The notes beneath the pieces were generated by a model, which was given only the letters and a program-made list of their open reading frames with translations, was not told the DNA's origin and ran no database searches. Position numbers and translations under genes: made by a program. From a virus (lineage: Duplodnaviria; Heunggongvirae; Uroviricota; Caudoviricetes), in IMG/VR virus record IMGVR_UViG_2534682256_000009: a stretch of 4,824 nt of DNA, one strand, 5' to 3'. Positions 1,857 through 4,824 of the stretch are shown here, piece by piece. How positions within the stretch are numbered: position 1 is the stretch's first letter; each line of letters opens with the position of its first letter.

Positions 1857-3383
1857 ATGAAAAAAGCCATAGCATATATGCGATTTTCATCACCAGGTCA
1901 GATGTCTGGCGACTCATTAAACCGACAGAGAAGACTTATTGCTGAATGGTTAAAGGTAAATAGTGATTATTATCTTGATACCATAACATATGAAGATTTA
2001 GGATTAAGTGCATTCAAAGGAAAGCATGCACAATCAGGAGCTTTTTCGGAATTTTTAGATGCTATAGAGCATGGTTATATATTGCCAGGAACTACATTGT
2101 TAGTTGAAAGTCTGGACAGACTTTCAAGAGAAAAAGTCGGTGAAGCGATTGAACGTCTGAAATTGATTTTGAATCACGGTATTGATGTTATAACTCTTTG
2201 CGACAATACAGTCTATAATATTGACTCTTTGAATGAGCCATATTCATTAATAAAAGCCATACTTATAGCACAAAGGGCAAATGAAGAAAGCGAGATAAAG
2301 TCAAGTCGGGTTAAATTATCATGGAAGAAAAAACGGCAGGATGCACTGGAATCAGGTACGATTATGACGGCGTCTTGTCCGAGATGGCTCTCCTTAGATG
2401 ACAAAAGAACGGCTTTTGTTCCAGACCCCGACAGGGTGAAAACTATTGAGCTAATTTTTAAACTCAGGATGGAAAGGCGCTCATTGAATGCAATAGCCAA
2501 GTATTTAAATGATCATGCTGTAAAGAATTTCTCAGGAAAAGAAAGTGCATGGGGGCCTTCTGTAATTGAAAAATTATTAGCGAATAAAGCTCTGATAGGT
2601 ATATGCGTACCTTCATATCGTGCAAGAGGGAAAGGGATAAGTGAAATCGCTGGCTATTATCCCAGAGTCATATCAGATGATTTGTTTTACGCTGTACAGG
2701 AAATTCGGTTGGCACCTTTTGGTATTAGCAATAGTAGCAAGAATCCTATGCTAATAAATCTACTTCGAACAGTTATGAAGTGTGAGGCTTGTGGTAATAC
2801 CATGATTGTTCATGCGGTATCTGGAAGTTTGCATGGCTATTATGTTTGTCCGATGAGAAGATTACATCGATGTGACAGGCCATCAATAAAGAGAGATTTG
2901 GTTGATTATAATATCATTAATGAATTGCTTTTTAATTGTAGCAAAATTCAACCAGTTGAAAACAAGAAAGATGCTAATGAAACTTTAGAGTTAAAAATTA
3001 TTGAGCTTCAGATGAAAATTAATAATTTAATCGTTGCATTGTCTGTCGCGCCTGAAGTTACCGCTATAGCAGAGAAAATAAGACTATTAGATAAGGAATT
3101 ACGAAGAGCTTTGGTATCATTGAAAACTTTGAAGAGTAAAGGTGTAAATTCATTCAGTGATTTTTATGCTATTGACTTAACCAGTAAAAATGGACGAGAG
3201 TTATGCCGTACACTTGCCTATAAAATATTCGAAAAAATCATAATTAATACGGATAATAAAACCTGTGATATCTATTTTATGAATGGCATTGTTTTTAAAC
3301 ACTATCCTTTAATGAAAGTAATATCCGCCCAGCAGGCGATAAGTGCTCTCAAATATATGGTTGATGGTGAGGTTTATTTTTGA
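1857..3383 (+). CDS. ybcK: Large serine recombinase (resolvase/invertase catalytic domain, recombinase domain, zinc ribbon, coiled coil), 508 aa; corresponds to DLP12 ybcK
   Basis: N-terminus AIAYMRFSSPGQ...SLNRQ aligns with the resolvase catalytic motif YxRVSTxxQ (putative nucleophile Ser11). ESLDRLSRE matches the conserved DRLxR motif. C-terminal half has a Cys cluster KCEACGN...YYVCPMRRLHRCD and a predicted coiled-coil stretch. AGGTG SD 5 nt before the ATG. Strongly AT-rich codon usage. Confidence 0.9.
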   Translation: MKKAIAYMRFSSPGQMSGDSLNRQRRLIAEWLKVNSDYYLDTITYEDLGLSAFKGKHAQSGAFSEFLDAIEHGYILPGTTLLVESLDRLSREKVGEAIERLKLILNHGIDVITLCDNTVYNIDSLNEPYSLIKAILIAQRANEESEIKSSRVKLSWKKKRQDALESGTIMTASCPRWLSLDDKRTAFVPDPDRVKTIELIFKLRMERRSLNAIAKYLNDHAVKNFSGKESAWGPSVIEKLLANKALIGICVPSYRARGKGISEIAGYYPRVISDDLFYAVQEIRLAPFGISNSSKNPMLINLLRTVMKCEACGNTMIVHAVSGSLHGYYVCPMRRLHRCDRPSIKRDLVDYNIINELLFNCSKIQPVENKKDANETLELKIIELQMKINNLIVALSVAPEVTAIAEKIRLLDKELRRALVSLKTLKSKGVNSFSDFYAIDLTSKNGRELCRTLAYKIFEKIIINTDNKTCDIYFMNGIVFKHYPLMKVISAQQAISALKYMVDGEVYF

Positions 3384-3736
3384 GTAATAATCACTTTTTC
3401 AACCGTGCTATGGTATGAAAGTAAAGTAACTACTATGATATTAACTATCGAGCAAGAATATCCCCAGGCACTCAACAGGGCGCAGGTCAACGTGAATCGG
3501 TCATGACACGACACCGATTTTGCGGAATCAATGTTGCTTATGAATACAACATCCCGCTTAGTACATGTTCAACACATCAGCAAATTTTGAACTGGGTGTG
3601 GCACTTAACTGAAAAAACATGGATGACACAAAATGTTACTCGTCGCTTCATTGAAGTAGCTTGTGGATATCACAAGCTAGACTATCGCCAATGATATTCA
3701 ATTTTTGATTTTTTAGTATCAACCTTCCATAATAAT

Positions 3737-3765
3737 GTCACCGGAGCTTGAACAACTCCGGTGAC
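3737..3765. repeat. Perfect 10-bp stem hairpin GTCACCGGAG-N9-CTCCGGTGAC; function unknown (RNA structure, protein-binding site or recombination site)
   Basis: Read directly: gtcaccggag (3737-3746), loop cttgaacaa, ctccggtgac (3756-3765). Followed by ttctgcgcattt, not a clean U-tract. Lies about 25 bp upstream of the ylcH-like start. Confidence 0.6.
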
Positions 3766-3789
3766 TTCTGCGCATTTAAGGGGACTTAA

Positions 3790-3888
3790 ATGCGACCACA
3801 ATCTGAACTCCTTACCTTGTCACAGATGCAGAAATGCACCTGCGATGTCTTGCATCCAGCGTTTGATCTCTGCGGAGGTGAAGCGTGA
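3790..3888 (+). CDS. ylcH: Small ORF (32 aa) translationally coupled to the downstream gene; ylcH-like
   Basis: ATG at 3790 preceded by an AAGGGGA SD. Encodes [32 protein letters not shown]. Its TGA (3886-3888) overlaps the GTG start of the next gene (GTGA). Position matches the small ylcH gene upstream of ybcN in DLP12 by recollection. Not in the supplied ORF track, presumably because of its size. Confidence 0.45.
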
Positions 3889-4340
3889 ACCTCCCACAAG
3901 ATGGCATCAAATTACATCGCGGTAACTTCACCGCTGTCGGTCAGCAGATCCAGACTTATCTGGAAGACGGCAAATGCTTTCGCATGGTGCTTAAACCGTG
4001 GCGCGAGAGACGCAGTCTTTCCCAGAATGCACTCAGCCACATGTGGTACAGCGAAATCAGTGAATACCTCATCAGCAGGGGGAAATCGTTCGCTACTTCA
4101 GCATGGGTAAAAGATGCTCTCAAACACACATACCTCGGTTATGAAACCAAGGACCTGGTTGATGTCGTAACCGGCGAAATCACTACTATCCAGTCGTTAC
4201 GCCATACCTCCGATCTTGGTACCGGAGAGATGTATGTCTTCCTGTGTAAGGTTGAAGCCTGGGCGATGAATATTGGCTGCCACCTGACTATTCCACAGAG
4301 CTGCGAGTTCCAGCTGCTGCGTGACAAGCAGGAGGCGTAA
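3885..4340 (+). CDS. ybcN: YbcN-like nin-region protein, 151 aa (DLP12 ybcN, reported as a DNA base-flipping protein)
   Basis: 151-aa ORF with GTG start and a strong GGAGGTG SD 6 nt upstream. Length and position (before ninE) match DLP12 ybcN. Stop TAA overlaps the ninE ATG (TAATG). Confidence 0.78.
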
Positions 4341-4510: not shown

Positions 4511-4824
4511 TTTGAGAAAAGCAGCGCGTAGTCGGGAATGCCAAGTAAGAATCCCTGGCGTATGTAATGGCAACCCTGAAACGTCTGTACTGGCACATAT
4601 CCGGCTGACTGGATTGTGCGGCACCGGTACCAAACCGCCAGACTTGATTGCCACCATTGCATGTTCTGCCTGCCACGACGAAATCGACCGCCGCACACAT
4701 TTTGTCGATGCTGCATATGCAAAAGAATGCGCGCTGGAAGGTATGAACCGCCCCGGGTTTCCTGGAGAGTGTTTTATCTGTGAACTCAGGCTGCCAGATC
4801 ATCGTTTCCGATGGAAGCATAATA
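4503..4824 (+). CDS. ybcO: YbcO-like Cys/His-rich protein (DUF1364-type putative zinc-binding nuclease), 5' partial: open to the window end with no stop in 107 codons
   Basis: ATG 4503 with AGGAGG SD 4 nt upstream, overlapping the ninE stop by 8 nt. Translation MADLRKAARSRECQVRIPGVCNGNPETSVLAHIRLTGLCGTGTKPPDLIATIACSACHDEIDRRTHFVDAAYAKECALEGM... matches the YbcO family by recollection. Frame stays open to nt 4824. Confidence 0.7.
   Translation, partial: MADLRKAARSRECQVRIPGVCNGNPETSVLAHIRLTGLCGTGTKPPDLIATIACSACHDEIDRRTHFVDAAYAKECALEGMNRPGFPGECFICELRLPDHRFRWKHN

Follow-up and report, generated by a model that had tools for sequence, protein, structure and literature searches.

The stretch described here (positions 3384-3789, 406 bp) lies between the serine recombinase gene ybcK and the first nin genes of a lambdoid prophage, in a window of 4,824 nucleotides (nt) taken from the IMG/VR virus record IMGVR_UViG_2534682256_000009; "the window" denotes this whole stretch of DNA, and positions refer to it unless another sequence is named. 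Chromosomes of Escherichia coli O157:H7 were 100% identical to the window, and in strain TR01 the locus was found within a short lambdoid prophage integrated beside icd, with the gene order int-xis-(truncated O)-P-ren-emrE-ybcK-[gap]-small open reading frame (ORF)-ybcN-ninE-DUF1364 (ybcO)-rusA-ylcG-Q-lysis genes. The source of the window is thus a cryptic DLP12-like lambdoid prophage of E. coli O157:H7, which may be the one named CP-933C; it is not DLP12 proper, which is integrated at argU instead of next to icd.

The 406 bp are very probably the double-deletion decay product of an ancestral cargo, joined to a retained and conserved leader of the nin module. The parts of the stretch and the genes that bound it are as follows (aa, amino acids; + and -, strands of the window).

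1857-3383 (+): ybcK, gene of a large serine recombinase (508 aa, intact), left bound (ORF list; RefSeq on identical O157 DNA)
3384-3449: block 1, 3' flank of ybcK common to all ybcK-bearing alleles (100% identical to 5114-5179 of contig L003)
3447-3449: junction 1, 3-bp microhomology ATC at a 228-bp deletion (L003 5180-5407 missing; BLAST blocks overlap by 3 nt)
3447-3528 (+): block 2, tail of an Ant-type pseudogene and 22 nt downstream of it (98.8% identical to L003 5408-5489)
3503-3694 (+): chimeric 63-aa ORF, with codons 1-8 (MTRHRFCG) from non-coding DNA of block 2 and codons 9-63 equal to the C-terminal 55 residues of an 88-aa gene
3527-3528: junction 2, 2-bp microhomology AT at a 661-bp deletion (L003 5490-6150 missing; BLAST blocks overlap by 2 nt)
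3527-3789: block 3, remnant of the 88-aa gene and leader (99.2% identical to L003 6151-6413)
3705-3733 (+): sigma-70-like hexamers, TTGATT-17 nt-CATAAT, with which the conserved nin module begins on the left; no other promoter-like site in 3300-3900
3737-3765 (+): hairpin 1, GTCACCGGAG-cttgaacaa-CTCCGGTGAC, perfect 10-nt arms (repeat scan), covarying stem and conserved loop
3771-3794 (+): hairpin 2, CGCATTTAAG-GGGA-CTTAAATGCG, perfect 10-nt arms (repeat scan), marked as IR4 in the phi80 record
3790-3888 (+): ylcH-like 32-aa ORF, orf33 of phage 82 (ORF list; annotated in O157 TR01, K-12 and phage 82)
3885-4340 (+): ybcN, Orf/NinB-family gene and first long nin gene, right bound (ORF list; TR01 annotation)

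The reference for the scar was a long allele of 1.3 kb on the E. coli contig L003, which has the same backbone and was located via the homologue P0002; the order in its slot is ybcK, a 90-aa ORF, an 88/105-aa ORF and ylcH-ybcN. By BLASTN against L003, the window stretch was resolved into three collinear blocks of 98.8-100% identity, and the 661-bp segment missing between the second and the third contained the entire 90-aa gene as well as codons 1-33 of the 88-aa gene. The allele of strain UMB200201_11 (NZ_CP049343.1; also contig JBAMEY010000455.1) has the identical backbone P-ren-emrE-ybcK ... ylcH-ybcN-ninE-ybcO-rusA and holds all 406 bp of the window stretch in the same order at 98.8-100% identity, but it measures 1,300 bp and carries a 66-aa Ant fragment, a 90-aa gene (phrog_1258) and an intact 88-aa gene, which were annotated in RefSeq as a "P22AR C-terminal domain-containing protein" (66 aa) and hypothetical proteins of 90 and 88 aa. 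The ancestral cargo consisted of the ybcK flank, a truncated Ant-type fragment, the 90-aa gene and the 88-aa gene, and two illegitimate, microhomology-flanked deletions (228 bp at ATC and 661 bp at AT) reduced it to 406 bp. Presence of the 228-bp segment was taken as ancestral because it was found in three independent alleles (L003/L004, ST131 L006 and ST648 L007), and the second deletion was polarised by its truncation of the 88-aa gene. The two microhomology deletions, the chimeric ORF and the retained leader are shown by these comparisons, and the central 320 bp are, with high confidence, functionless.

The intact 1.3-kb allele was present in six of the 5,426 complete E. coli genomes, none of them labelled O157, and the three-piece version in about 300, every one at 99% identity or more. 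Three points weigh against the decay reading or limit it: nothing of intermediate coverage ranked between the long and the three-piece versions in this genome set, so that no single-deletion intermediate was seen by which the two events could be ordered; the O157 copies are clonal and essentially identical, and selection on the 63-aa ORF is therefore not measurable; and this ORF keeps the most conserved motif of its family, WVWHLTEKTW, so that residual function is conceivable. An alignment against other E. coli genomes had been proposed to distinguish a deletion scar from a distinct allele or conserved non-coding DNA, and the deletion scar was the correct option. The whole stretch is assignable to ordinary prophage decay and is neither a new gene nor a new RNA; the ybcK-ylcH interval of O157:H7 should be labelled a double-deletion remnant instead of unexplained intergenic DNA, and the case shows erosion of a cryptic prophage by small microhomology deletions that spared the regulatory entry to the next module.

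The sequence-only reading of the window had found no convincing gene in the stretch, had described it as of intermediate guanine-cytosine content, and had noted one ORF at 3503-3694 without a recognisable Shine-Dalgarno sequence (SD) and without a family. The first three of these observations were borne out: RefSeq/PGAP annotates nothing there in the listed O157 genomes, the guanine-cytosine content is 0.39-0.43 (about 0.30-0.38 in ybcK and about 0.50 in the nin genes), and the ORF, which starts with ATG and is the sole plus-strand ORF of at least 60 aa in 3384-3789, is preceded by gtgaatcggtcATG, in which there is no AGGAG-like SD. The last was wrong, as the ORF product matched the profiles phrog_2559 (E 4.4e-51, residues 1-63) and phrog_12459 (E 5.8e-26, residues 11-62 on profile positions 35-86 of 87) and ten homologue clusters (E 1.6e-38 to 8.6e-17). 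When nine full-length homologues of 75-105 aa were aligned, similarity to the 63-aa ORF began at codon 9; residues 9-63 align to the C-terminal 55 residues of this accessory family of phages and integrative elements with all invariant positions there kept, whereas eight unrelated residues stand in place of the N-terminal 33. At the DNA level, 3527-3705 agrees at every base (100% identity) with the 3' portion of the coding sequence annotated for the 88-aa protein in UMB200201_11. The ATG of the 63-aa ORF overlaps the stop codon of the Ant fragment (TCATGA) and opens a frame of only 12 codons in the long allele; the 661-bp deletion put this chance ATG in frame with the 88-aa gene from its codon 34 onward.

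The 88-aa family (phrog_12459 / phrog_2559) comprises 1,069 clusters at 50% identity, and an AlphaFold 2 model of a full-length member (predicted local distance difference test score, 88) contains H8-24, E25-28, E31-35, E39-43, H44-47, H50-61 and H68-82, that is, a domain of about 85-95 aa with an N-terminal helix, three strands and C-terminal helices. The 63-aa ORF falls short of this domain by the first 33 family residues (H8-24, E25-28 and most of E31-35). From the missing SD and the loss of helix 1, strand 1 and the greater part of strand 2, we infer that it is a non-functional remnant. It is improbable that the ORF instead encodes a functional, shortened or neo-functionalised mini-protein with the conserved C-terminal core of the family, although every family-invariant residue from I34 on is retained, WVWHLTEKTW included, the frame is open from its ATG, the 63-position family phrog_2559 is matched end to end, and a few of the library representatives, at 65-74 aa, are likewise short and match the profile from about position 22-25 onward. 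Set against this are the missing SD, the missing part of a confident model, the origin of the first eight codons, which in the long allele are non-coding DNA past the end of the Ant fragment, the lack of a PGAP call for the ORF in the listed O157 genomes and its confinement to one clonal lineage. The family phrog_2559 itself appears to be the truncated O157 form, since the full-length homologue P0003 aligns only to positions 7-62 of 63 and leaves the first six unmatched, for which truncation is the simplest reading. In annotation, the 63-aa O157:H7 ORF, the basis of phrog_2559, is best handled as a truncated chimeric pseudogene of the 88-aa family.

A tblastn search with the 63-aa ORF against 50,697 GenBank phage records gave no match, and the 88-aa family appears to have its home in prophages and integrative elements, not in sequenced virions. 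Searches of Pfam, NCBIfam and PADLOC yielded nothing significant for the 63-aa ORF or for the 88-aa, 90-aa and ST648 118-aa proteins; a DDE_1 match (E 0.012-0.04, below the cut-off) was discarded as noise. One 194-aa protein of the representative library (P0034) is a family member fused to a DnaB N-terminal domain (PF00772, E 1e-24), and other members are encoded in the replication or early region of a P2-like phage and in an integrase/primase island. From these contexts the family hints at a replication-linked role.

The part of block 2 at 3447-3506 represents the last 19 codons (IEQEYPQALNRAQVNVNRS) of a truncated Ant-type gene, with the stop codon at 3504-3506, and matches the end of the 66-aa "P22AR C-terminal domain" coding sequence of UMB200201_11. 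An intact homologue of 202 aa from another lambdoid prophage (L005) matched phrog_245, "anti-repressor Ant" (E 1e-54), and phrog_7640 (E 1e-58), and a 33-aa ORF of the window gave a weak match to phrog_7640 (E 0.0014). A full Ant gene would have N-terminal Ant/BRO-type and P22AR_C domains; 19 codons and the stop remain here. Judged by these alignments, the 66-aa fragment of UMB200201_11 is a piece of the 202-aa Ant-type anti-repressor that was truncated before the O157 deletions occurred.

Two other readings would make the central part (3384-3704) something that was kept for a purpose. A small RNA, or a terminator of ybcK formed by a weak hairpin and TTTT at about 3495-3521, had been anticipated from the letters alone; the stretch is non-coding and adjoins mobile-element genes, beside which prophage small RNAs are known to occur, and the hairpin does exist (7-bp stem, 11-nt loop, followed by TTTT). 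Its fold does not stand out from that of shuffled sequence (z = +0.50; 138 of 200 shuffles equal or surpass it), the terminator scan missed it and reported no plus-strand terminator-like site, and the long allele places the same hairpin about 340 bp downstream of ybcK, within the tail of the Ant fragment, which is the wrong place for a ybcK terminator. The whole of 3384-3704 folds like its shuffles (z = -0.49 on the plus strand and -1.66 on the minus strand), with no excess structure, and a covariance-model search of the window against Rfam 15 at E ≤ 10 returned nothing in the stretch and only a spurious snoR35 at 1205-1292 (16.9 bits against a gathering score of 40), so that retention as a small RNA or terminator is highly improbable. 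It is also very unlikely that the stretch is the leftover of a YbcK serine-recombinase site for cargo exchange and that the deletions are recombinase products. The slot beside ybcK does hold cargo that varies between strains, and the long alleles have a palindrome some 85-100 bp beyond the ybcK stop codon (CTATAGTTTTACTATAG in L006, CTATGGTTTTGCTATAG in L003); however, this palindrome falls within the first deleted segment and is missing from the window, the two junctions share unrelated microhomologies of 2-3 bp (ATC and AT) and no common motif, the inverted repeats of 3384-3704 (I4 and I5), with short arms of 9 nt, both fall within the remnant of the 88-aa gene, no direct repeats were reported there by the repeat scan, and the cargo differences begin at different points (L003 5152, 5373 and 5447). 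The palindrome is at 5195-5215 of L003 and about 3586-3602 of L006, and full-length Ant homology begins just to its right (L003 5226); that it marks the right end of an emrE-ybcK cassette or a YbcK site is speculative.

Decay of the cargo does not extend to the right end of the stretch. The sequence-only reading overlooked the last 90 bp or so (3705-3794), which form a leader of the nin operon that is both conserved and structured. Every allele and phage compared becomes similar again exactly from TTTGAT (3704-3709) onward, whatever lies upstream. The hexamers score 9 of 12 as a sigma-70 promoter, with a conserved spacing inside the 16-18 nt range, and TTGAT and CATAAT are invariant in 13 phage and prophage sequences collected by BLAST while the spacer and the upstream DNA diverge. 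The linker between the hairpins, GACTTCTGCGC, is invariant in the same 13 sequences. In hairpin 2, the GGGA loop supplies the purine core of the site at which ribosomes would bind for ylcH, and the ATG (3790) lies in the 3' arm; the stop codon of the ylcH-like ORF overlaps the GTG start of ybcN (GTGA, 3885-3888). The region 3734-3800 folds with -31.6 kcal/mol (z = -6.6). On these alignments, the rightmost 90 bp or so are shown to be a conserved 5' leader of the ylcH-ybcN-ninE-ybcO-rusA operon and not debris. The product of ybcN is an established member of the Orf family (PMC4118853).

The leader was found in phages 82, phi80, HK639 and HK225, in Klebsiella phage KO-TP1 and Enterobacter phage CobraSix, and in more than 120 IMG/VR contigs, with 100 distinct versions among the 142 occurrences collected. 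At least four classes of hairpin 1 stem were distinguished (GTCA(C/T)CGGAG / CTCCGGTGAC; TCTGCCAGCGG / CCCTGGCAGA; TCCGTCAGCGG / CCCTGACGGA; and variants with CATCGG / TCGATG and CACCAG / CTGGTG), compensatory variants being those of phi80/HK225, CobraSix, L019/L023 and L173, and hairpin 2 occurred in three forms (CGCATTTAAG / CTTAAATGCG; GCGCTAAACG / CGTTTATGCGC; GCGCTTTGAG / CTCAAAGTGC), all with a 10-bp stem and a GGGA loop. Across 40 distinct leaders, 94.9% of the cells paired, compared with 85.9% in column shuffles (0 of 500 reached the observed value) and 19-37% with slid partners; in six pairs, both bases are changed. A single pair takes the form U-G in 22 of the 40, which would be an A-C mismatch on the opposite strand, and the constraint was therefore assigned to the plus-strand RNA. 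The matches listed for the pattern TGAACAAC-N9-14-CTTCTGCGC in genome contigs belonged to unrelated phyla and were set aside as chance. In the IMG/VR contig L263 (5649-5764), a copy of the leader has the loop of hairpin 2 and its closing base inverted (AAGTCCCCTT versus AAGGGGACTT), which looks like a flip via the inverted repeat and would destroy the SD of ylcH. A TTGAT-N8-ATCAA dyad (3704-3722) overlaps the -35 hexamer, with nearly invariant arms and a free spacer in the 40 distinct leaders; it may be a protein-binding site, and its N8 does not fit the N4 spacing of the FNR consensus.

As an observation the leader is not new, since its features are already in the records of phages 82 and phi80. 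In the nin region of phage 82 (X92588.1), the same architecture is 82.7% identical to window 3703-3890, and the annotated putative -35/-10, "possible regulator-binding site" (hairpin 1), ribosome-binding site, orf33 and orf151 coincide with the features of the window. The palindrome is a putative DNA site in that record, whereas the covariation points to pairing in the plus-strand RNA; hairpin 2 of phage 82 is of the K-12/phage 82 form and not of the O157 form.

The leader is most readily seen as a regulatory entry to the nin module, with, at moderate to low confidence, a weak or conditionally used sigma-70 promoter. The plus-strand RNA would begin at or near a stem-loop and continue into a second one that presents the SD of ylcH in its loop and pairs the start codon; stability, read-through and translation of ylcH would be adjusted by the two, and ybcN would be coupled translationally to ylcH through the GTGA overlap. 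We tentatively propose, while regarding it as open to real doubt, that the hexamers, the covarying stem-loop with the invariant C(C/T)TGAACAAC loop, the GACTTCTGCGC linker and the second covarying SD/start-codon stem-loop together make up a cis-regulatory RNA, so far uncharacterised, that serves the nin operon of a large lambdoid group (Escherichia, Klebsiella and Enterobacter). A phage or host factor could recognise the invariant loop of hairpin 1, in the manner of boxB-type hairpins. If so, the leader would gate the stability or translation of ylcH-ninB and would be neither a plain terminator nor a DNA operator.

The main alternative for the leader, that hairpin 1 is the tR2-equivalent terminator of the nin module and the hexamers are coincidental, is unlikely but deserves weight. 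In lambda, a canonical intrinsic terminator with a strong GC-rich stem (AGGCCTGC-tggtaat-GCAGGCCT-TTTTATTT) is the last element before ninB; hairpin 1, with its GC-rich, perfect 10-bp stem and conserved pairing, occupies the corresponding place before an Orf/NinB-family gene, and expression of the operon behind it is poor in the K-12 lysogen (PMC4118853). Lambda tR2 differs in having a U-tract, in sharing no sequence similarity with the window, and in being without promoter-like hexamers, a second hairpin or a small leader ORF. After the stem of hairpin 1 the plus-strand tail is UUCUGCGC (TTCTGCGC where it was examined for a U-rich tract), with no U-rich run, and the terminator scan reported the site on the minus strand only. 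Moreover, the 13 BLAST-derived sequences show no variation in the loop of hairpin 1 or in the GACTTCTGCGC after it, a constancy that a plain terminator does not need, and TTGAT and CATAAT are kept at 17-nt spacing despite a variable spacer.

The cis-regulatory reading of the leader has difficulties of its own. Independent covariation events are few (about three or four stem classes in hairpin 1 and three forms of hairpin 2), and the search pattern used for IMG/VR fixed CATAAT, TGAACAAC and CTTCTGCGC, so that only the 13 BLAST-derived sequences give an unbiased picture of their invariance. Hairpin 1 is not followed by a U-tract on the plus strand, on which the scan also found no terminator. Downstream rusA needs a promoter supplied by an insertion sequence (IS) for adequate expression in K-12 (PMC4118853); the native promoter-like element must therefore be weak, repressed or no promoter, and is not a strong constitutive one in the lysogen. 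The leader is nevertheless the only forward-looking element of the stretch, a modest lead that is widespread, supported by plus-strand covariation and absent from Rfam; it precedes recombination genes (Orf/NinB-family and RusA) whose silence in the K-12 lysogen has long been known and whose mechanism of silencing is unexplained. A literature search on ylcH/DLP12, CP-933C and the inverted repeats of phi80 returned nothing specific to this stretch.

The slot between ybcK and ylcH had been supposed to vary by presence and absence, with ybcL and ybcM in the DLP12 prophage of K-12 and not here, and this held for five alleles.

K-12: ybcL and ybcM
ST131: alpha/beta hydrolase gene on the opposite strand
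ST648: 108-aa Ant fragment and 118-aa gene
UMB200201_11 and L003: 66-aa Ant fragment, 90-aa gene and 88-aa gene
O157: 406-bp scar

In DLP12 of K-12 MG1655 (integrated at argU, as against icd here), the flanking genes are the same and ybcL and ybcM, an unrelated cargo, occupy 1,939 bp in place of 406 bp. When window 3300-3900 was compared by BLASTN with K-12 564000-576000, only the flanks aligned (3300-3422 at 86% and 3703-3900 at 81%, nothing between), so that homology comprises about 40 bp past ybcK and the leader from TTGAT, at 81-86%. The segment 3300-3449 was 98% identical to ST131 L006 and 92% to ST648 L007. Position 3449, at which homology to both of these stops, was considered as a recurrent module boundary or recombinase site and rejected, because past this point both alleles keep their homology to the long allele. 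Divergence from the long allele begins at L003 5152 in K-12, 5373 in ST131 and 5447 in ST648, and since the alleles leave it at different points, their differences fit patchwork homologous or illegitimate exchange rather than one recombinase site. Lambdoid prophages without emrE-ybcK carry other accessory genes in this place (the 88-aa gene, a full Ant gene, a HolE-like theta subunit gene and others).

The remaining genes to the left of ybcK were placed by the ORF list.

212-913: P
910-1212: ren
about 1280-1612: emrE

Between emrE and ybcK, a small ORF at 1671-1799 corresponds to a 40-aa hypothetical protein in TR01 and matches ylcJ of K-12 by position; it is frameshifted in some strains. The recombinase gene ybcK, intact in the window, shows decay of its own in several lineages, other O157 genomes (e.g. 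L001 4478-6000) included: the copy of TR01 has a frameshift, that of ST131 Ecol_745 a frameshift and an internal stop codon, and in many O157 genomes the gene is split by IS1203. At the right end, most O157 genomes match the window only to 4745, and the last 79 or so bases (4746-4824) are the end of an IS3-family element (IS1203/IS629-type) lying inside ybcO, which matches thousands of loci annotated "IS3-like element IS1203 family transposase".

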